40,883 nt of DNA from a virus (taxonomy: Duplodnaviria > Heunggongvirae > Uroviricota > Caudoviricetes), in IMG/VR virus record IMGVR_UViG_2923334124_000004; one strand, written 5' to 3'. The position numbers and the translations under genes were made by a program. The notes under the pieces are model-generated. The model saw only the letters and a list, made by a program, of their open reading frames with translations, searched no databases and had not been told where the DNA came from. Shown in pieces: positions 3,843-40,883 of this stretch. The first letter of the stretch is position 1, and each line of letters begins with the position of its first letter.

Positions 3843-5009
3843 TTAAACCCCTTTGACAACGTCAGCGTTGACCTGTGGAACCCCGATTTCAGCGGCCAGA
3901 TTCATGGCGGCTATTACCAGGTTACTGACGGCCAGCGGATACAGCAGGCTGACCATATTTTTACGGTGACTTCCCGGATTGCTCAGGCGGGCACGTATGG
4001 CATCCACTGCACCGGCGTCCATAATGTCCGTCAGCTGTTTACCGGCCCGTTGCAGTTTGAACGTCAGAAATTCTTCAAGGTTATTGTCCAGAGGCAGAAG
4101 TTCGACCACCTCACAGCGCTGAACGACTTCACGGACTTCCATATTGCGTTCAGACAGTTTTGTCGCCAGTTCCGGCTGGCCAATCAGCACGATGGACAGC
4201 AGTTTTTTGAAACCGGACTCCAGCTCAAAAAAGCGTTTGAGGTGTTTCAGTGTCGGAATGGGCAGACTGTGGGCCTCCTCAATCACCAGAACGTGGCTGA
4301 ACCCCGCCTGGCTGCTGTCTTTCAGGACGCGATGCAACTGGCGAAAACGGGCGTCCTGACTGCGTCTGATGCTTTCCAGTGGTGCGATGGTACTGATAAT
4401 GGCTTCGGCAATAGCTGCTGCCTTCAGGGTTTTCCCTTTCACATCGTTGTCTTCCATAGCGATGATGTATGGCTCGATAACAATTACCGGCGCATTCTCG
4501 CGGTTGATACGTTCAGTCAGGTCGCGGCGCAGCGTGGATTTACCCGCACCGGACTCACCGATGACGGCCATAAACCCACCATGACGGGCTGTCTGGTACA
4601 GCGCCTCACGCACGTAGCGAATGTCCGGGGTGGTGAACACATCATCAGAACCCTGCATGGCTTCGTCGGCGAACGGGTCACGGAAAAGACCAAACGCTTT
4701 TTTGGTTGCTGGAAATAACACCTGTTTTTTGAGTAACATATTCTCTTCCTCACTGAGGCTCGTTTTATCTGTGGTACCCGCTGTACGGGGCGTGGCCGCG
4801 CCCTGTACAGCATCAAAACTCTTCGTTGTATCAATCCCCTGACTTTCCAGCCAGGACGCAAGACGCCGGCGCACTTCTCCGGGGCTGGTGCGGGGCCACG
4901 CGTTATGATTCACAATCTGGGCCAGCGTGGCCTCAGAAACATCGACAGCTCTCGCCACCACCGCCTGTGGAATACGGGCCTCTTTCAGTTGCTGCTTCAG
5001 TACCAGCAT
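3843..5009 (-). CDS. MuB-like transposition ATPase (AAA+)
   Basis: Walker A IGESGAGKST; immediately downstream of the transposase; start set to ATG 5007-5009 preceded by AGGAGG (the track ORF begins at an upstream GTG, 5048). Confidence 0.8.
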   Translation of the reverse strand: MLVLKQQLKEARIPQAVVARAVDVSEATLAQIVNHNAWPRTSPGEVRRRLASWLESQGIDTTKSFDAVQGAATPRTAGTTDKTSLSEEENMLLKKQVLFPATKKAFGLFRDPFADEAMQGSDDVFTTPDIRYVREALYQTARHGGFMAVIGESGAGKSTLRRDLTERINRENAPVIVIEPYIIAMEDNDVKGKTLKAAAIAEAIISTIAPLESIRRSQDARFRQLHRVLKDSSQAGFSHVLVIEEAHSLPIPTLKHLKRFFELESGFKKLLSIVLIGQPELATKLSERNMEVREVVQRCEVVELLPLDNNLEEFLTFKLQRAGKQLTDIMDAGAVDAIRARLSNPGSHRKNMVSLLYPLAVSNLVIAAMNLAAEIGVPQVNADVVKGV

Positions 5010-5019
5010 GTTTCCCTCC

Positions 5020-6789
5020 TCAGTTGCCGTTAACAATGCTGATAACACTGCTGCGGGCCGGTGTGGTCAGCGTGGCCATGACTTCATCCAGTGCGGCTTC
5101 CGGTACGCCGTCCGGGTACTGTGCCGTTAACTGGCGGTAATGTTCCGGCGTCCAGGTAAGGCCGTCGGCGCTGAACTTATCGCGCAGGGCTTTCGCGGCC
5201 TCCACATGAGTCATGGGACGTTGTTCAGTGCGCGGCCCGCGTACGTCAGAGGCCTGACCACGCTTCGGCATATAGGCCGGAAGTGTGGTGTCGTCGATAT
5301 GTTTATACGGGTCAAGCCGCCCGCCGAACGGCAGCGCCTTCGCCTTGCGTGCGGCGGCTGCATCTGCGGCGTTGTCTGTACCGGTAACCAGCGCTTCGGT
5401 TTCTTTTGCCGCCATCTGTGCCGGGGTTTCCGGCAGGGCTTTGTAACTTTCGCCAAATACCGCCGCGCCTTCAGCAAAGCCAAACTCGTTCTTTCTGACC
5501 TCTTCGACCAGGAAGAACGTCTCGTGGCCGTCCTCACCGGTCAGAACCACCTGTGCCACATCGCTGCGCCATGGGTTACGGGTAATCATCAGTTTTTCAC
5601 CAACCAGTACGCCCGGTACCGTTGATACGTCAAATTCAGTGCCCCGGAACGAGACACGAAGTTTTGGCGTGACTTTGCGGAGTTCTGGTGCCGCCACAGC
5701 CAGTTCACGACATACCTCAACGGAAGGCGCTTTTTTCAGCTGCTCAGCAGTAATCTTCAGCCAGATATCCGTGCGGGTTTTACCGTGGCGGCTGTGAACA
5801 GCCGTGGCGTTAAAGTGGCTGCGCCATTTCGCGGCCAGCGCGTTGAGTTCTTCCAGACTGTGAACCGGCCGGAACTTCAGACCCGGCTCCAGCTTGCGTT
5901 CGATAATGTCACGCGCCTTTTCCACCTGTCCGGTGGCGCGGGCGTTATGCGGCTTGTGCGCTATCAGGTCGATGCCCAGTGAGCGGCACATGTTTTTCGT
6001 CATACCCGCGGTGTTTGCCGAGCCGGGGTCGAGATAGAGTATTTTCGGCACGCCGTGCAGCACGTCTGCGCCGCCACGCTCCTGCATGGCGTTGATAAGC
6101 ACAGAACACAGGTTCTCACCTGATTCCGCGCCCGTCACATACTCAACGTAAATCCAGCCGCTGGCATGGTCGGTAATCTCGTAACTCCACACGCGGTCAC
6201 TGGCGATACGGGCAAGGTTAGCGGGCTTGTTCTTGTAGAACTTCGCGCTGTCCATCACCTGCAGCCCTTTATGTCCATTGCTCAGGTAGTAAAGCGTGCA
6301 GAGTGAGGCGTCAATCTGCCAGACATGATTGGGATGCAGACTGGCCACTTCGGTATGTGGTGCAGGGGCATCCAGTTGTTCCGGGTGCAGGCCATAGTTA
6401 CGCAGAGCACGGCTGATGGCATCTTCAGACAACGGGAAAAACTCACTGGTGGTTTCATCTGTTCTGCCTGCGGTGATAAAGCCGTTAGCCCGCAGGGTTT
6501 CCACTGCATCTGCGATGGAATAGAGACGCTTACCGTTCTTGCGGGTGGCCTCACGCAGTGTGGCAGATATCAGCGCGGCTTCGTCGCGGGTCAGGGCGCT
6601 GCGCCCGGCATCGGCGCGTTTTTTGCGTTTATCAGTCACAGATACCTCCTTCAGCCTGCGCAGCAGAGTGGCGCGGGACATGCCAAGTTCAGCACAGGCA
6701 GCGTCGTATATTGCACCGCGTTTACCATGCCCCGCGTCACGTGCCGCGCGGGCTGTTTCAACCAGTTTTTCAGTCAGTGCCGGGGTCAT
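5020..6789 (-). CDS. DDE transposase, MuA-like (integrase core domain)
   Basis: 589 aa; N-terminal HTH region, integrase-core motifs (HVWQIDAS...YLDPGS), followed by the B-like ATPase; the right terminus carries Mu-like CATTTATCG repeats. Confidence 0.8.
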   Translation of the reverse strand: MTPALTEKLVETARAARDAGHGKRGAIYDAACAELGMSRATLLRRLKEVSVTDKRKKRADAGRSALTRDEAALISATLREATRKNGKRLYSIADAVETLRANGFITAGRTDETTSEFFPLSEDAISRALRNYGLHPEQLDAPAPHTEVASLHPNHVWQIDASLCTLYYLSNGHKGLQVMDSAKFYKNKPANLARIASDRVWSYEITDHASGWIYVEYVTGAESGENLCSVLINAMQERGGADVLHGVPKILYLDPGSANTAGMTKNMCRSLGIDLIAHKPHNARATGQVEKARDIIERKLEPGLKFRPVHSLEELNALAAKWRSHFNATAVHSRHGKTRTDIWLKITAEQLKKAPSVEVCRELAVAAPELRKVTPKLRVSFRGTEFDVSTVPGVLVGEKLMITRNPWRSDVAQVVLTGEDGHETFFLVEEVRKNEFGFAEGAAVFGESYKALPETPAQMAAKETEALVTGTDNAADAAAARKAKALPFGGRLDPYKHIDDTTLPAYMPKRGQASDVRGPRTEQRPMTHVEAAKALRDKFSADGLTWTPEHYRQLTAQYPDGVPEAALDEVMATLTTPARSSVISIVNGN

Positions 6790-6804
6790 AGCTTGTCTTC
6801 CCTG

Positions 6805-7122
6805 TTATCCGATTCTGGCGGCAATTTTTCTGGCGAGGTCGCACAGTGTTTCGCCATCGCAGGTTTTCACCACGGTATTTACCGGTTGCGGTGCAACTAC
6901 CGGGCGTAATGCTGACTGATTCTGCAGACGTCTTATCTGCTGCATCAGCATCACCTCCATCGTCAGTACAAACGGGTGCGTCTCCTGTGCGGGTACGCAG
7001 ATTTCACCGGAAGGGGTCACCACGCGGAAACCCTGCACCATCTCCGGCAGCAGATTACACAGTGCGTGCCCCAGTGCCTCCGGGCTGTCCATCAGGGTAT
7101 TTTGTGTGTTATTCGTATTCAT
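6805..7122 (-). CDS. hypothetical protein
   Basis: 105 aa ORF directly upstream of the transposase, same strand. Confidence 0.4.
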   Translation of the reverse strand: MNTNNTQNTLMDSPEALGHALCNLLPEMVQGFRVVTPSGEICVPAQETHPFVLTMEVMLMQQIRRLQNQSALRPVVAPQPVNTVVKTCDGETLCDLARKIAARIG

Positions 7123-8042
7123 TACTGCATATCCTCCGGTCGGTTGATTTCAGGTTCCGGTTCGGTCAGCCAGGCGGGGGCATCGTTACCCGATGGAGCG
7201 GCCTCAAGGTCAAACGTCTCACGTAATGCATGAACACTGCGTTCAATCTGGCAGACCAGACCGGCCATGAAATCTCTGGGGGTATCGATCATGTTTTTGG
7301 TGCAGTATTCACACAGGGTCTCAAAAACACTGGACAGCCGGACGGCGATAGCCGATTCGGCCTCAACCGCTAATGCCGTCACTTCCGCCCGCAATTTTTT
7401 CAGTTCTTCGTCTGGCGGCGGAGGTTGCAGGCGCGATTTCTTCTCCAGTTTTGTGGCCAGTTCGTTGATTTTTTCGTCCTTTCCGGCAAGCACCTGTTGC
7501 TGAGCTGCGTTGGTTTCGCGCGCTTCACGCAGGGCGGCCTTCAGTTCGCGGCTGGTCATGCGATCAATATCATCAAGCGTTGCACCGGCGACGGTTCCAC
7601 CATCAGCTAATGCGTCGAGTTCTTCGTCATCCAGAACCATCAGTTCATATAACTTGGTTTTTCCCAAAACGCTCAGCGCTGAGCGTTTTGGCTGTTCATC
7701 TCCATTGCCGAGAAATTTCACGCTGGCCTGCATCATGCGACGAGCTACCTGTGGTGCTAATCCGAGGTCGTTTTCCAGAATATTTGTGAAATCACCATGC
7801 GGTTCATTTTCTTTTAAGATGATCAGCCGCTTACCCGCTTCCAACATAGATTCAGCACTCTGCGCCATATAAAAACGTGCTTCGTGAACGATGCGTTCAC
7901 GTTCATAAGGCAGTCCATCACCAAACTGCTGCATGATCTCCATGCGATGCTGTGTCATGGCATTCAGGCTGACGTTGAGATCATCCGACAGCGGTACATC
8001 GGCGTTCAGTTCAGTGTTAATCGGTGATTTGGTACGTCCCAT
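7122..8042 (-). CDS. hypothetical early protein (acidic, coiled-coil rich)
   Basis: 306 aa ORF with long helical/coiled-coil stretches; no confident family assignment. Confidence 0.45.
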   Translation of the reverse strand: MGRTKSPINTELNADVPLSDDLNVSLNAMTQHRMEIMQQFGDGLPYERERIVHEARFYMAQSAESMLEAGKRLIILKENEPHGDFTNILENDLGLAPQVARRMMQASVKFLGNGDEQPKRSALSVLGKTKLYELMVLDDEELDALADGGTVAGATLDDIDRMTSRELKAALREARETNAAQQQVLAGKDEKINELATKLEKKSRLQPPPPDEELKKLRAEVTALAVEAESAIAVRLSSVFETLCEYCTKNMIDTPRDFMAGLVCQIERSVHALRETFDLEAAPSGNDAPAWLTEPEPEINRPEDMQ

Positions 8043-35845: not shown

Positions 35846-37095
35846 TTATGGGAAACCTGAATGAAACAGAAAAGTGGGAAGAAAATATCTATCAACTGGA
35901 GACATCAGATCCGGTTCTGGGTGGTGCAGACGGGATATCAAATCGAGCCCCCCGGCAACTGGCAAACAGGACGAAATGGCTGAAGAAGAAAACGGAGGAA
36001 GCCGCACAGTCACTGGCTGAACACGTACGTTCCCGTAACCACCCGGACGCGACACTGACAGCTAAGGGGTTCACCCAACTGAGCAGTGCCACCAACAGCA
36101 CCTCTGAAACGCTGGCCGCCACACCAAAAGCGGTCAAGGCTGCATACGACCTGGCAGCCGGCAAGGCGCCTGCCAGCCACACTCACCCGTGGAGTCAGAT
36201 AACGGGAGTGCCTGCGGCTTCACTGACGGCAAAAGGCACCGTACAACTGAGCAGCGCCACGGACAGTCAATCAGAAACTGAGGCTGCCACGCCGAAGGCG
36301 GTCAAGGCTGCATACGACCTTGCAGCCGGCAAGGCGCCCGTCAGCCACACTCACCCGTGGAGTCAGATAACGGGAGTGCCTGCTGCCTCGCTGACGGCAA
36401 AAGGCACCGTACAATTGAGCAGTGCCATCAACAGCACGTCTGAAATACTGGCCGCCACACCGAAAGCGGTCAAGGCTGCATACGATCTGGCAAACGGAAA
36501 ACAACCGGCAGATGCCACGCTCACTGCTCTGGCAGGACTTGCCACTGCAGCAGATCGGTTGCCTTATTTTACCGGAGCAGACCGCGCAGAGCTGGCAACC
36601 CTTACAGCTATTGGTCGCGCTATTATCGCTAAGGGCAGTATAAAAGATGTCCTCAATTACCTTGGTTTGGGGGAAGGCTCGGCGCTGCCCGTTGGTGTAC
36701 CTGTTCCGTGGCCCACTGCCACACCGCCAGCAGGCTGGTTAAAGTGCGACGGGCGCGCCTTTACAAAAGAACAATATCCTGTTCTGGCCAGAGTCTACCC
36801 GACCCTCCGTCTTCCCGATTTACGCGGTGAGTTTATCCGTGGATGGGACGACGGGCGAAAAGTGGATACAGGGCGCGATCTGCTTTCACGGCAGGATGGT
36901 ACAAGTTTTTCTCATTACGCAGGTAATTTTGACATTGGGTCTGGTCATTCAATCAATAACTATGACCAAATCGTTGACAACCAACCTGGATTCTCCCGTT
37001 TTTCATTTGCAGGTCCTTCGCGAGGCGATGGGGTTAATTATGTGACCATTCGTCCCCGTAACATTGCGTTTAATTACATCGTAAGGGCGGCATAG
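35842..37095 (+). CDS. tail fibre protein; constant N-terminal part fused to variable C-terminal cassette a
   Basis: 417 aa; three 56-aa fibre repeats; the C-terminal region begins at a Gin-type crossover-like site and is shared with two other cassettes. Confidence 0.8.
   Translation: MIMGNLNETEKWEENIYQLETSDPVLGGADGISNRAPRQLANRTKWLKKKTEEAAQSLAEHVRSRNHPDATLTAKGFTQLSSATNSTSETLAATPKAVKAAYDLAAGKAPASHTHPWSQITGVPAASLTAKGTVQLSSATDSQSETEAATPKAVKAAYDLAAGKAPVSHTHPWSQITGVPAASLTAKGTVQLSSAINSTSEILAATPKAVKAAYDLANGKQPADATLTALAGLATAADRLPYFTGADRAELATLTAIGRAIIAKGSIKDVLNYLGLGEGSALPVGVPVPWPTATPPAGWLKCDGRAFTKEQYPVLARVYPTLRLPDLRGEFIRGWDDGRKVDTGRDLLSRQDGTSFSHYAGNFDIGSGHSINNYDQIVDNQPGFSRFSFAGPSRGDGVNYVTIRPRNIAFNYIVRAA
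36055..36530 (+). repeat. tail-fibre tandem repeats (about 2.8 x 168 bp) within the fibre gene
   Basis: Period of 168 bp confirmed from GGAGTCAGAT at 36191 and 36359; protein repeat TAKG..QLSSA..S.SE..AATPKAVKAAYDLAAGKAP.SHTHPWSQITGVPAASL. Confidence 0.8.
36650..36675 (+). other. Gin/Hin-type crossover-like site 1 (TCCTCAATTACC-TT-GGTTTGGGGGAA), inside the fibre gene
   Basis: 12-2-12 layout whose right half GGTTTGGGGGAA resembles the gix/hix half-site GGTTTTGGATAA as I recall it; marks the start of about 200 bp shared by all three cassettes. Confidence 0.5.
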
Positions 37096-37114
37096 AAACG
37101 TTGGTTTGGGGGAA
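37089..37114 (+). other. Gin/Hin-type crossover-like site 2 (GGCATAGAAACG-TT-GGTTTGGGGGAA), direct orientation
   Basis: Same right half-site and TT core as site 1; overlaps the fibre stop codon; begins the homology of the silent cassette. Confidence 0.5.
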
Positions 37115-37567
37115 GGCTCTGCATTGCCTGTTGGTGTACCGGTTCCATGGCCCACCGCCACACCGCCAGCAGGCTGGTTACAGTGCAACGGAGCTACGTT
37201 CACCAAAGAACAATATCCTGTTCTGGTCAGAGTCTACCCGACCCTCCGTCTTCCCGATTTGCGCGGTGAGTTTATCCGTGGATGGGACGGTGGTCGCAAG
37301 GTTGATACCGGGCGTGCGCTACTTTCATTTCAGGAAGGGACTATCGTATCCGGTTTTGATGATAATGATACCGGAGATATCAGTTCGCTCGGCTCTACAC
37401 AATACGGATTTGGTGACGCTTTAACCTCTAATCAACTGGGGGTCTTAAATGGCAAAAAGTGGATATTTGATGCATCCTCTAAAGGTGCACAAAGATATGA
37501 CTGGTGGGCTTATGTATCAGCTCGCCCCCGCAATATCGCATTTAACTATATCGTGAGGGCGGCGTGA
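37106..37567 (+). other. silent alternative tail-fibre C-terminal cassette b (promoterless, no start codon of its own)
   Basis: Begins GEGSALPVGVPVPWPTATPPAGWL... like the expressed fibre C-terminus, then diverges; in phase with the fibre constant part relative to the TT core; the track M is a TTG artefact. Confidence 0.55.
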
Positions 37568-37573
37568 TACCGT

Positions 37574-38188
37574 TCAGCCGGCAAGCGCCAGTGGCGCTTC
37601 CGGCCAGCTGATTTCAGGTGCCTTGCTGATATCCAGTGCGTTCAGCTCGTCGATATAATCCAGCACGGCGTTCAGTTTTGCCGTTTCTTCTGGTTTCAGA
37701 CTGCGACCAGCACGCAGTTTGAGGTTGATAAGATCGACGGACGCCATCGCCTGTTTCACCCGTTGCTGGCGTTGCTGTCTGGCAACCTCCAGTTCTGCGG
37801 CTCGCTGCCGTTCAGTATCGGTTACCCACGCCTCACCGTTCCAGGTATCCCATGGCGTGGCTGGCTGTTTTGTGGTGGTGTCCGCCGGGTAATCACCCGG
37901 TTGGGTAATCAGAACGGGGTTACCGTTCTCCGTGCTGTATACCGTCTCGCCGCGGTGATCAGGCACATGCTCCCACCCGTTCAGCGTGGCAGTCCGGCAA
38001 ACCACGTAACCCGAAATTGCTTCCGGCGGTGCATCGGCGCACGAATGTGCCGGAGTACCCACCCCAAGGGCGAGATACTCCACAGAGGATGAGGTGTATT
38101 CCCGGGTTTCCTCGTCATAGTGATATACAGTGATATCGCCCGCTACAGTGGCGATACCGTTTTCATCCAGAACTGCAGTGTTACTCAT
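37574..38188 (-). CDS. tail fibre assembly protein (Tfa/U-like)
   Basis: 204 aa; VYHYDEETREY and C-terminal DYIDELNALDISKAPEISWPEAP are typical of Tfa chaperones; start overlaps the stop of minus-strand cassette c (TAATG). Confidence 0.7.
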   Translation of the reverse strand: MSNTAVLDENGIATVAGDITVYHYDEETREYTSSSVEYLALGVGTPAHSCADAPPEAISGYVVCRTATLNGWEHVPDHRGETVYSTENGNPVLITQPGDYPADTTTKQPATPWDTWNGEAWVTDTERQRAAELEVARQQRQQRVKQAMASVDLINLKLRAGRSLKPEETAKLNAVLDYIDELNALDISKAPEISWPEAPLALAG

Positions 38189-38691
38189 TAAACTGCCCTC
38201 ACAATGTAATTAAGTGCAATGCTACGGGGTCTGACAGTGATACCCTTCGCATACCCGCTTCTGATAGAGGTCAGAATAGTAGCCTGCATACCATTGTCTG
38301 ACATTGCCACGACAGGATCGCTGAATGTTGTCCCGTCCGGCATTTTAAAGCTGCCCTCACGAAGGTCTGTAATGGAATCTTCATTGTTGAATCCCATGCC
38401 GACTATCCCCGAGGTTCCCGTAGTGTCCTGGTTATAATAATCCAGCATTGCTGTTCTTAACAGCGTTGCCCCTTGTGCGGACAGCAACTTACGTCCTGTA
38501 TCAACTTTGCGCCCGTCGTCCCATCCACGGATAAACTCACCGCGTAAATCGGGAAGACGGAGGGTCGGGTAGACTCTGGCCAGAACAGGATATTGTTCTT
38601 TTGTAAAGGCGCGCCCGTCGCACTTTAACCAGCCTGCTGGCGGTGTGGCGGTGGGCCACGGAACAGGCACACCAACGGGTAGCGCCGAGCC
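38188..38691 (-). other. silent alternative tail-fibre C-terminal cassette c (inverted orientation)
   Basis: The minus-strand frame reads GEGSALPVGVPVPWPTATPPAGWLKCDGRAF... from the crossover site and then a distinct C-terminus; it would fuse in frame to the fibre constant part after inversion. Confidence 0.6.
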
Positions 38692-38717
38692 TTCTCCTAA
38701 ACCAACGTTTATCTCTC
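38692..38717 (-). other. Gin/Hin-type crossover-like site 3 (reads GAGAGATAAACG-TT-GGTTTAGGAGAA on the minus strand), inverted orientation
   Basis: Inverted counterpart of sites 1 and 2 with the same TT core; lies about 55 bp upstream of the invertase gene. Confidence 0.5.
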
Positions 38718-38771
38718 AAATCCTCCCCACATTATCTCAGTACTTTAACCACTCAAAAGGGAGTATTTTTA

Positions 38772-39344
38772 ATGCTGATTGGCTACATACGTGTGTCAAC
38801 AAATGACCAAAACACAGATTTGCAACGCAATGCATTAATGTGCGCAGGATGTGAACAGATTTTTGAGGACAAAATGAGCGGAACCAAGTCGGAACGACCA
38901 GGCCTGAAACGCGCTTTAAAGTGCCTTAAAAGAGGGGATACATTGGTGGTCTGGAAGCTGGATCGGTTGGGTAGAAGAATGAAACACCTCATTGCTCTCA
39001 CAGAAGAGCTACGCGCAAAAGGTGTCAATTTTCGCAGTCTGACGGATTCAATCGATACCAGCACTCCGATGGGAAGGTTCTTTTTTCATATGATGGGTGC
39101 ACTGGCAGAAATGGAGCGTGAACTGATAGTTGAGCGCACGCTGGCTGGACTGGCTGCTGCGCGAGCACAAGGAAGAGTTGGAGGACGTCGCCCGAAACTG
39201 ACGAAGGAGCAGCATGAGCAGATCGCAAGATTGCTCCAGAAAGGGTATGACAGAAAGCGGCTGGCAATTATCTATGATATTGGACTGTCAACGATCTACC
39301 GCTATCACCCTGTTGGGACTGTCATAACGCAACCTGAAATGTAA
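38772..39344 (+). CDS. serine DNA invertase (Gin/Pin/Hin/Cin family)
   Basis: MLIGYIRVSTNDQNTDLQRNAL...VVWKLDRLGR...MGALAEMERELI is the resolvase/invertase catalytic domain with the active-site serine; C-terminal HTH; ATG 38772 preceded by GGGAG. Confidence 0.85.
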   Translation: MLIGYIRVSTNDQNTDLQRNALMCAGCEQIFEDKMSGTKSERPGLKRALKCLKRGDTLVVWKLDRLGRRMKHLIALTEELRAKGVNFRSLTDSIDTSTPMGRFFFHMMGALAEMERELIVERTLAGLAAARAQGRVGGRRPKLTKEQHEQIARLLQKGYDRKRLAIIYDIGLSTIYRYHPVGTVITQPEM

Positions 39345-39376
39345 TTCTTTTTCAAATAATGAAACGCCGCGTGGAT

Positions 39377-39429
39377 GCCATTTATCGCACAAGATAGAGT
39401 GCATTTATCGCGCGGCGCATCATTCTTCA
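39377..39429 (+). repeat. prophage right terminus with two direct CATTTATCGC repeats (candidate transposase binding sites) and terminal ...CTTCA
   Basis: GCCATTTATCGCAC (39377-39390) and TGCATTTATCGCGC (39400-39413), 23 bp apart; the last bases CATTCTTCA resemble the Mu right end. Confidence 0.55.
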
Positions 39430-39527
39430 TGTGAATCATCCGTTGATTAATTATATATAAACATTATGTATCAACAAGTTACATTGATAATTAACGCTAC
39501 CATTAATAAAAATACCCCACAAGGTCC

Positions 39528-39556
39528 GAAAAAAAACGCCGGCAATGTGCCGACGT
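39528..39556 (-). terminator. rho-independent terminator of aroA (host)
   Basis: The minus strand reads CGGCACATTGCCG GCG TTTTTTTT about 45 bp downstream of the aroA stop. Confidence 0.5.
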
Positions 39557-39599
39557 CTTTGAAAAGAAAGGATTGTCTATGTTATCGCCCGTTATTCAT

Positions 39600-40883
39600 T
39601 CAGCCGGGTTGACTTATCCGCGCCAATTGCTCGAAATAGTCTGGAAAAGTTTTAGCGGTACATTTTGGATCAAGAATCGTCACAGGCGTATCTGATAATG
39701 CGACCAGCGAGAAACACATCGCCATCCGGTGATCATTATAAGTGGCGATCTCAGCAAATTTCAGTTTTTCCGGTGGCGTAATGCGAATGAAATCATGCCC
39801 CTCTTCGACTTCCGCACCGACTTTACGCAGTTCTGTTGCCATCGCAAACAGGCGATCGGTCTCTTTAACACGCCAGTTATAGATATTGCGCAGCGTGGTG
39901 GTGCCTTTTGCAAATAACGCCGCGGTGGCAATGGTCATCGCCGCATCGGGAATATGGTTCATATCCATATCAATGGCGTTCAGTTCACCACGCGTGCAGG
40001 AAATATAATCATCGCCCCAGCAAATGGTCGCGCCCATTTTTTCCAGAACATCAGCAAAGCGAATATCACCCTGCATACTGTTGCGTCCAATGCCGGTCAC
40101 TTTTACAGTGCCGCCTCTGATTGCTGCTGCTGCCAGGAAATAAGAAGCCGAAGATGCATCGCCTTCAACCAAATAAGTGCCCGGAGACTGGTAAGACTGC
40201 CCCCCTTTTACGACAAATTGTTGATAGTGCTGATTTTCAATTTCAACACCAAACGTCTTCATCAGATTGAGGGTGATATCGATATAAGGTTTAGAAACCA
40301 GATCGCCTTTAATACGAATCACCGTATCTTCCGGCGCAAGAGGCGCAGTCATTAACAGTGCGGTGAGGAACTGGCTGGAAACGGAGCCATCAACATCAAC
40401 GTTGCCGCCAGTAAAGCCGCCCTGTAAACGCAATGGCGGATAATTTTCTTGTTCCAGGTAAGTGATCTTCGCCCCGCCCTGGCGCAGCGCATCCACCAGA
40501 TGACCAATCGGGCGTTCTTTCATTCGCGGTTCACCGCTCAGTACAATATCATTGCTACCCAGGCAAAGTGCTGCCGCCAGCGGACGCATTGCCGTTCCGG
40601 CGTTACCGAGGAACAACTCCCGGGCACTTTCTGCGTGTAATGGACCACCGTTACCGATAATTTCGCAACGCGTACGATCGGCTGAAAGCGTATAGCTTAC
40701 CCCTAACGCTGTTAATGCATTCAGCATATGGCGCACGTCATCGCTATCCAGCAGATTGGTTAATACTGTTTTGCCGTGTGCTAATGCCGCCAGCAATAAA
40801 GCGCGGTTAGAAACGCTCTTGGAACCGGGCAGATTAATAGTGCCATCGACACGAGCGATGGGTTGTAACGTTAGGGATTCCAT
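39600..40883 (-). CDS. aroA: 3-phosphoshikimate 1-carboxyvinyltransferase (EPSP synthase)
   Basis: 427 aa, full length (ATG at 40881-40883); N-terminus [35 protein letters not shown] and overall sequence match enterobacterial AroA. Confidence 0.95.

Follow-up and report, generated by a model that had tools for sequence, protein, structure and literature searches.

Prophage Phi2, the BcepMu-like transposable prophage of E. coli ST131 represented by the 40,883-nt stretch of DNA analysed here (the window), very probably has in its tail-fibre gene a switch of the Gin/Pin/Cin type that works by multiple inversions. Three crossover sites, three in-frame fibre fusions and four naturally occurring isomers were found. 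That invertases switch fibre tips has been textbook knowledge since Mu and P1, and this switch is itself already known, since both this locus and a three-site switch of this design were described in 2014; the additions made here are Phi2's inner site and a census covering four isomers.

Crossover sites and fibre cassettes

The fibre gene starts with an ATG at 35848. Its constant 5′ part (35848–36662, plus strand) contains three Phage_fiber_2 repeats (PF03406, 4.6e-56) and ends with KDVLNYL at the core of the first crossover site, identically in all four isomers. Site 1 (36650–36675, plus strand; core 36662–36663) reads TCCTCAATTACC TT GGTTTGGGGGAA. The inner site 2 (37089–37114, plus strand; core 37101–37102), a direct repeat of site 1, reads GGCATAGAAACG TT GGTTTGGGGGAA, and site 3 (38692–38717; core 38704–38705) is inverted, its minus strand reading GAGAGATAAACG TT GGTTTAGGAGAA. 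Each comprises two imperfect inverted 12-bp halves around an identical 2-bp core, giving 26 bp in total; the inner arms AAAC(C/G) and GGTTT are common to all three, and the left halves match the palindromic ideal poorly (5–6 of 12 positions). With at most one mismatch, the core and right half, TTGGTTTRGGRGAA, occur exactly three times in the window against 0.04 expected, a number reached in none of 100 shuffles of the window. No fourth crossover site was found in the window, where a looser 19-nt pattern allowing up to three mismatches gave the same three. The same site pattern recovers the annotated boundaries of the Mu G segment exactly, and in P88, Shae_phiSM, 500465-1, Cartapus and e14 it finds two sites apiece. 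The left halves of sites 1 and 3 appear in Table 3 of Forde et al. 2014 (PMC4134206) as Phi2_5prime and Phi2_3prime, respectively.

Three alternative C-terminal cassettes are associated with these sites. In the window the constant part runs into cassette a (36664–37095, plus strand; 144 codons and a TAG), whose stop codon falls within the left half of site 2. Cassette b (37103–37567, plus strand) is silent in the window and would be expressed after two inversions, while cassette c (38188–38703, minus strand) is inverted and would be expressed after the outer inversion, together with a sense-oriented chaperone gene, tfa. The stretch following the sites is shared between a and b over 244 nt at 85% identity, between a and c over 229 nt at 94%, and between b and c over 231 nt at 86%, and a Pfam Collar domain is encoded there in each cassette. 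The TT core occupies codon positions 2–3 at each site, and the simulated fusions read through without interruption, cassette a giving a fibre of 415 aa, b one of 426 aa, and c one of 443 aa. PGAP annotates the fibre gene as a pseudogene fragment in every isomer. An earlier sequence-only reading had placed three 26-bp TT-core sites at these positions and in these orientations, each followed by a stretch encoding the same peptide (about 230 nt are common) and then by a different C terminus in the same codon phase; all of this is borne out, and the Mu and e14 sites recovered by the same pattern support its assignment of the sites to the invertase crossover class.

Isomers of the locus in ST131 genomes

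Simulated exchange at the TT cores generates four arrangements, each of which is present over 3601 of 3601 nt in a complete ST131 genome (JJ1886, EC958, GN04133, or AR_0055), in all cases at the aroA-flanking locus. The S1 isomer of the window's locus is found unaltered in EC958, with the constant part (C) fused to cassette c; AR_0055 and other genomes carry the C–b fusion; and S1-THA-01-A differs from a simulated isomer by one mismatch. There are four DNA states but three fibres, as two of the states express a and are distinguished only by which way b, tfa, and c face. The inversion isomers that the sequence-only reading had anticipated thus exist, with crossovers exactly at the predicted cores, and its route to cassette b by two successive inversions is topologically correct from the window's arrangement, the product being the fusion seen in AR_0055.

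Inversion at this locus might instead be ascribed to RecA-dependent homologous recombination between the ~230-bp repeats, the 26-bp sites being merely the points where the repeats start. The repeats are long and similar enough (85–94%) for occasional homologous recombination, and an ST131 preprint places the events simply at repeats. However, the four isomer genomes fit the core-exchange simulations base for base, and differences in the shared regions all stay linked to their own cassette. The outer sites are alike only over TTGGTTT before the first right-hand difference and do not match on the left, which together with the exact junctions confines the crossover to at most the first 7 bp of homology, far under the RecA requirement and too short for recombination of this type. 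Mu, e14, and P88 are two-site relatives with the same 26-bp design in which inversion is known to be invertase-dependent, and in strain 4/0 a junction with another prophage lies exactly at the core. RecA-dependent exchange is accordingly scarcely credible as the source of these isomers, and strand exchange at the cores is the reading we retain.

Junctions were counted across 5,426 complete E. coli genomes, the counts representing assemblies and not independent events. The end of cassette a is joined to c, which requires site 2, in 185 genomes with 100% identical sequence; the pin (invertase) side is joined to a in 288 genomes, and C is joined to a in 157. Numbers per isomer are ranges obtained from three robust junction counts and rank sampling, and the search joins some pieces. 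C–a–c is contiguous in about 68–90 genomes and C is joined to c in a single piece at ≥99.4% identity in at least about 170, with the C–c and C–a–c queries mixing true junctions, joined pieces, and diverged relatives. An S3-specific query matched 348 genomes, a figure rejected as a count since joined pieces reuse the shared repeat; for the existence of S3 we use single-piece matches at 100% identity only. Among ~445 genomes in the census, a, c, and b are expressed in roughly 35%, 43%, and 22%, respectively, and arrangements S2 and S3, both dependent on site 2, are each common.

These data bear on whether site 2 is an inactive relic of cassette duplication, with only the outer inversion catalysed and the other arrangements being rare fixed accidents. 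Such a relic would fit the description of Phi2 in the relevant parts of Forde et al. 2014 (PMC4134206), which give two sites and one 2067-bp inversion, and clonal inheritance, not repeated switching, could explain the genome counts. Yet the site-2 junctions recur without a single difference, S2 and S3 are not rare, strains whose names belong to the same series are found in different states (4/4, 4/1-1, and 4/0; U14A versus U12A, U13A, and U15A), and in EPEC the small inner-site inversion is more variable between colonies than the large one (PMC4272514). We consider an inactive site 2 very unlikely and treat it as a working crossover site. Co-occurrence within one culture is taken from the literature and concerns the outer inversion only, both orientations of that segment being reported in PacBio reads of an EC958 culture (PMC4134206).

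The only phage-like record is PhiKM, whose assembly is partial and breaks off within the repeat; it was rejected as virion evidence for this reason. PV468777.1 ('Entero_P88...') has the look of a P2-like phage with this invertase, but that reading was rejected: the predicted prophage extends too far and takes in aroA, serC, and the right end of the locus.

Invertase, predicted enhancer and proposed mechanism

The gene at 38772–39344 (plus strand) encodes a serine DNA invertase of 190 aa with a Pfam Resolvase domain at residues 3–135 (8.2e-51), an HTH_7 domain at residues 138–180 (1.3e-12), and an active-site Ser9 in IRVSTNDQ, within MLIGYIRVSTNDQ, an architecture and length typical of the Gin/Hin/Cin/Pin subclass. 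Residues 1–181 align with Gin (PDB 4M6F, E = 2e-93), and the protein is 73% identical to Gin, 75.5% to PinE, and 85.6% to the EPEC invertase. A Gin/Hin-family serine invertase next to the segment had been proposed from the sequence alone, with the correct end coordinate of 39344; a longer ORF starting at 38643 was rejected as the invertase gene. Other invertases are encoded in ST131, in Phi1 and in P2-like prophages, and could act in trans.

A Fis-dependent recombinational enhancer is predicted at 38793–38865 (plus strand), within the first ~95 nt of the invertase gene, in a stretch that shows no indels relative to gin. Codons 8–31 display an excess of synonymous-site conservation (8/22 versus 12/96, p = 0.012, a modest statistic from about three independent lineages). 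The Fis sites within the predicted enhancer were positioned according to what we take to be the layout of the hin enhancer. AT-rich motifs named in PMC3798978 were also used to place them, and the predicted element lies ~90–160 bp from site 3, a spacing similar to that of the Hin system (PMC3798978). The helix-B basic patch (Hin K47, R48, and K51) and the helix-1 residues Q151, R154, and L155 of the DNA-binding domain are reported to be conserved in Fis/enhancer-dependent invertases alone (PMC3798978); residues of this type are present here in GLKRALK (residues 44–50) and EQIARLL (149–155), under a Hin to Gin-type numbering (offset 1) mapped in this analysis. These features suggest that switching would depend on Fis and a cis-acting enhancer.

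In the mechanism we propose, the invertase would make 2-bp staggered cuts at the TT cores of the three 26-bp sites and exchange strands within any pair whose members point in opposite directions. The region would be divided by the sites into block A (cassette a) and block B (cassette b, tfa, and cassette c), and inversions between sites 1 and 3 (2042 bp in this module) or 2 and 3 (1603 bp), and between recombined descendant sites, would interconvert four arrangements. C-A-B-pin, the arrangement of the window, would give fibre a; C-B′-A′-pin, fibre c with a sense-oriented tfa; C-A-B′-pin, fibre a with a sense-oriented tfa; and C-B-A′-pin, fibre b. Every arrangement would join the constant part in frame with one of three C-terminal receptor-binding tips, so that a lysogen population would hold prophages of different fibre specificities. 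Switching is presumably driven by this invertase and not by one from a co-resident prophage. The three tips probably change host range, the evidence, purifying selection on cassette a, being at the DNA level only; of the earlier proposal of up to three receptor specificities, the three in-frame fibres stand at that level, and only c has a chaperone gene downstream.

Chaperone gene, related switches and meaning

The tail-fibre assembly (chaperone) gene tfa (37574–38188, minus strand; 204 aa; Pfam Caudo_TAP, 5.6e-27) is single for the three cassettes, and its ATG shares 1 nt with the stop codon of cassette c. It is antisense to the late operon in the window's arrangement, which expresses a, and in the arrangement expressing b, so that those a and b fibres may not fold or may need a chaperone in trans. 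This coupling to c alone lends some weight to the view that the segment flips without effect on the phage, either because the prophage is defective or because a and b fibres misfold for want of a cognate chaperone and only c with tfa works; the pseudogene call by PGAP and the broken assembly of PhiKM in this region point the same way. Conversely, the dN/dS of cassette a relative to the EPEC copy (0.10–0.14) indicates that strong purifying selection acts on this cassette, the conserved terminal strand RPRxIAxNYIVRA is kept by all three tips, and the fibre ORF is unbroken in all isomers. The layout of one tfa and three cassettes is also kept in three diverged modules, those of the window, EPEC, and the P2-like prophage of strain 4/0, which argues for a working design. 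Flipping without consequence thus appears unlikely, and we favour a switch that serves the phage.

Strain 4/0 carries a co-resident P2-like prophage with its own three-site segment and the same TT core, and its assembly, GCF_003856615.1, shows an apparent 43-kb inversion between sites of the two prophages, with junctions in the 955–959 kb and 1,000–1,004 kb regions and the join to the other prophage at the core. We offer tentatively, as a possibility about which we are more doubtful than confident, that the TT-core sites of BcepMu-like and P2-like prophages form one recombination network. If so, fibre tips would pass from one phage to another, unrelated one through the action of the invertase, with inversion of ~43 kb of chromosome (aroA-serC-ycaO-focA-pflB...) as a by-product, as the 4/0 assembly suggests. 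A second reading, offered with the same reserve, is that the switch also turns the chaperone on and off, since the two fibre-a arrangements differ only in tfa orientation. The junction between cassette e and pin was rejected as a measure of how often the two prophages exchange, because near-identical pin alleles are natively paired with cassette e in numerous further prophages, as well as on a plasmid of 93 kb.

Goldberg et al. 2014 (PMC4272514) used deep sequencing and PCR to demonstrate three repeats, four variants, and three C termini in the EPEC E2348/69 module. This module (NC_011601.1, 1891695–1893703) has the same order as the window (constant part, site, a, site, b, reversed tfa, reversed c, site, invertase), the same TT core followed by GGTTTGGGGGAA as the right half of each site, a cassette a stop codon within the inner site, and inversions of 2009 and 1577 bp. 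The cassette a tip is 93% identical in protein, although nucleotide identity is only about 75% and the variable parts of b and c are unrelated. The module belongs to a P2-like phage in EPEC and to a BcepMu-like one in the window, and switching was measured by experiment in the former, whereas in the latter it is inferred from natural isomers. The 2067-bp Phi2 segment assembled in both orientations from EC958 PacBio reads (Forde et al. 2014, PMC4134206) is the same locus, equal to 36650–38717 of the window when measured between outer site ends, and the 5′ and 3′ sites published there correspond to sites 1 and 3 after recombination; the passages of that paper on this segment do not mention the inner site, the cassette b alternative, or the four arrangements.

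The Mu Gin/gix, P1 Cin/cix, and e14 Pin/pix systems resemble the window in having 26-bp sites with a 12-2-12 layout where the constant part of the fibre gives way to the variable part, and an invertase gene directly adjoining one site. The e14 sites also have TT as their core, and their right half, GGTTTGGGAGAA, is almost the same, whereas the Mu core is TC. In these systems two sites serve two alternative fibres, each with its own chaperone gene, in contrast to the three sites, three alternatives, and single chaperone gene found here. The multiple-inversion system Min of p15B reportedly has six mix sites (Sandmeier, Iida and Arber); compared by description only, it likewise uses a Gin-family invertase and more than two sites to shuffle tail-fibre 3′ segments, but differs in its number of sites, in its many more isomers, and in residing on a P1-related plasmid prophage. 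It enters the site consensus cited in Forde et al. 2014 (PMC4134206).

The discovery weight of these results is small, as the locus has been known to be invertible since 2014 and the three-site, four-variant design was shown in the homologous EPEC module. Their value for annotation and assembly is more direct, since PGAP mislabels the fibre as pseudogene fragments, and prophage predictors and comparative studies call the isomers 'translocations'. The census also constitutes a natural data set on site choice by a Gin-family enzyme. Within ST131, differences between genomes at this locus arise by programmed inversion, not through mutation or misassembly.

Crossover sites and fibre cassettes

An intact tail-fibre gene lies within 35848-39344 of the window, with a constant 5′ part (C; 35848-36662, plus strand) containing three Phage_fiber_2 repeats (Pfam). 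Three 26-bp sites of 12-2-12 design were found: site 1 (36650-36675, plus strand; TCCTCAATTACC TT GGTTTGGGGGAA), site 2 (37089-37114, plus strand; GGCATAGAAACG TT GGTTTGGGGGAA), and site 3 (38692-38717, inverted; GAGAGATAAACG TT GGTTTAGGAGAA). The core and right half match three times in the 40.9-kb window versus 0.04 expected, and a looser pattern (three mismatches) found no fourth site in the window. The sites are accompanied by alternative C-terminal cassettes a (36664-37095, plus strand), b (37103-37567, plus strand), and c (38188-38703, minus strand). The 229-244 nt after each site are 85–94% alike and encode a Pfam Collar domain, followed downstream by a tip of 72–100 residues distinct to each cassette. 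All three tips terminate in an RPRxIAxNYIVRA strand; given this common end and the shared Collar start, the variable parts appear to be inserted into a single collar fold. At all three sites the TT core occupies codon positions 2-3, and simulated fusions are open, yielding fibres of 415 aa (a), 426 aa (b), and 443 aa (c). The sequence-only reading had described the TT-core sites, a shared peptide-coding stretch followed by differing C-termini, and an equal codon phase permitting in-frame fibres, and all of these hold. The stop codon of cassette a (37093-37095) falls inside the left half of site 2 (GGCA-TAG-AAACG). RefSeq annotations (database loci L001, L002-L006) never present the fused fibre gene as one CDS; in every isomer, PGAP breaks the intact 415-443-aa gene into pseudogene fragments marked “incomplete” and separate ORFs labelled “phage tail protein”.

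A lone tail-fibre assembly (chaperone) gene, tfa (37574-38188, minus strand; Caudo_TAP), is present for the three cassettes and is translationally coupled downstream of cassette c through a 1-nt TAATG overlap.

Many E. coli ST131 chromosomes, JJ1886 among them, carry the fibre region at 100% identity, directly adjoining the host gene aroA; the prophage is Phi2 of strain EC958. Its backbone is BcepMu-like, in keeping with the Bcepmuvirus classification of the matching PhiKM record. The backbone (3846-8042, minus strand, and 39345-39600) includes an rve-family transposase (5023-6789, minus strand) and an AAA+ ATPase (3846-5048, minus strand). Between the invertase gene and aroA there are two copies of CATTTATCGC, at about 39379-39388 and 39402-39411, and the pair may represent transposase-binding repeats at the right end. 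Two phage records matching the locus are unreliable: PV468777.1, a prophage prediction running through host focA-ycaO-serC-aroA, and PQ738613.1, an incomplete assembly that is interrupted within the 230-bp repeat and continues in early genes.

Four arrangements in E. coli genomes

The three sites divide the region in two, block A with cassette a and block B with b, tfa, and c, and recombination between inverted sites can generate four arrangements around C and the invertase gene, pin: S0 (C-A-B-pin, the window; fibre a), S1 (C-B′-A′-pin; fibre c), S2 (C-A-B′-pin; fibre a), and S3 (C-B-A′-pin; fibre b), with tfa in sense in S1 and S2 and antisense to the late operon in S0 and S3. S1–S3 were built in silico by strand exchange at the TT cores. 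As an inversion switch predicts, each isomer was found exactly (3601/3601 nt) at the aroA locus of a sequenced genome: S0 in JJ1886, S1 in EC958, S2 in GN04133 (one base off in S1-THA-01-A), and S3 in AR_0055. The outer sites have only TTGGTTT in common before the first right-hand difference and nothing on the left, so the exact matches confine the crossover to 7 bp or less, a hallmark of site-specific recombination that excludes exchange of the RecA type. The mechanism is thus well grounded at the DNA level. In S0 and S2, where sites 1 and 2 form a direct repeat, cassette a could also be deleted.

A census of 5,426 complete E. coli genomes recovered about 445 with the region. The end of a is joined to c, which needs site 2, in 185 genomes, the pin side to a in 288, and C to a in 157; these three queries are robust because the two flanks sit on different strands in any other arrangement, which prevents their being joined. 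By rank sampling, C-a-c is contiguous in 68-90 genomes, and C-c, at ≥99.4% identity, in at least about 170. These counts correspond to roughly 67-89 genomes in S0, 170-195 in S1, 68-90 in S2, and 95-117 in S3; these figures count assemblies, not independent events, and include a minority of diverged relatives. Mixed states occur within strain series grouped by name alone: 4/4 is S0, 4/1-1 is S1, and 4/0 is S2-like, while U14A is S0 and the a-c junction is found in U12A, U13A, and U15A.

In strain 4/0, a C-a-c-tfa-b′ block is joined exactly at the site 3 core to a P2-like prophage's fibre gene in reversed orientation (NZ_CP023849.1 locus, L002, 5377-7089; locus L012, 3000-6500), encoding a 571-aa chimeric fibre with cassette b at its end. 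Its pin-aroA side lies about 43 kb off, adjoining the P2-like prophage's own three-site segment. The layout suggests a 43-kb chromosomal inversion, mediated by an invertase, between crossover sites of the two prophages; the arrangement could also be an assembly error.

Relation to described inversion systems

Inversion of a 2067-bp segment was reported as the source of a spurious Phi2 PacBio contig (Forde et al. 2014, PMC4134206). The pair listed in Table 3 of that paper, TCCTCAATTACCTT GGTTTAGGAGAA and GAGAGATAAACGTT GGTTTGGGGGAA, corresponds exactly to sites 1 and 3 after recombination, and the authors describe only two sites. In ST131 wound isolates, a 2026 preprint described inversions and a “translocation” in prophage fibre genes, with the sites unresolved; provided that the prophage named there is Phi2, the latter is probably the appearance of S0 versus S3.

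The site pattern has exactly two matches in Mu, at the annotated G-segment boundaries (TC core), two in e14 (TT core, right half GGTTTGGGAGAA), and two each in P88, Shae_phiSM, 500465-1, and Cartapus. Three matches each were found in the window, the strain 4/0 P2-like prophage, and the inversion module of a P2-like prophage in EPEC E2348/69 (Goldberg et al. 2014). The EPEC module resembles the window in being collinear, with three TT-core sites, the same right half, one tfa, and a first-cassette stop (TGA) inside the inner site, a position occupied by TAA in the strain 4/0 P2-like prophage. The latter also has a single tfa; conserved in three diverged modules, this layout is probably functional. 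The EPEC inversions measure about 2.2 and 1.8 kb by figure, or 2009 and 1577 bp by Table S1 coordinates, and all four variants were PCR-confirmed (Goldberg et al., PMC4272514). The two modules share about 75% DNA identity, and their first cassette tips 93% protein identity; a first-cassette dN/dS of 0.10-0.14 indicates purifying selection. The system is therefore already known, in its outer inversion at the Phi2 locus and in its three-site design in the EPEC module. Judged by sequence-level features, all of which are present, it is predicted to work like Gin/Pin, although the third site common to the window and EPEC module is absent from textbook cases. The proposed three-site switch is confirmed as an observation, and its interpretation is supported at the DNA level.

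Invertase, predicted enhancer, and possible module mobility

The gene beside the segment (38772-39344, plus strand; 190 aa) is, as proposed, a Gin/Hin-family serine invertase: it contains Resolvase and HTH_7 domains (Pfam) and aligns with solved Gin structures (E=2e-93) with Ser9 in place. It shares 73% identity with Gin of Mu, 75.5% with PinE of e14, 81.6% with the P88 invertase, and 85.6% with that of the EPEC P2-like prophage. The enzyme has the basic patch in helix B and the helix-1 Q/R/L residues reported as specific to Fis/enhancer-dependent invertases (McLean et al., PMC3798978). Across six invertase genes, representing about three independent lineages, fully conserved synonymous codons make up 8/22 in codons 8-31 versus 12/96 elsewhere (p=0.012). 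These codons lie 90-160 bp from site 3 and, if the Fis sites are positioned as in the hin enhancer, would fit a Fis enhancer inside the gene, like those of hin and gin.

The 5′ part of the invertase gene (~270 nt) also occurs, at 99.5–99.9% identity, joined to another cassette, “e”, in about 105 genomes. This combination occupies many different chromosomal locations and is also carried by a 93-kb plasmid (NZ_AP019805.1, 61603-62413), suggesting that the invertase and cassette module seems to move between phage backbones.
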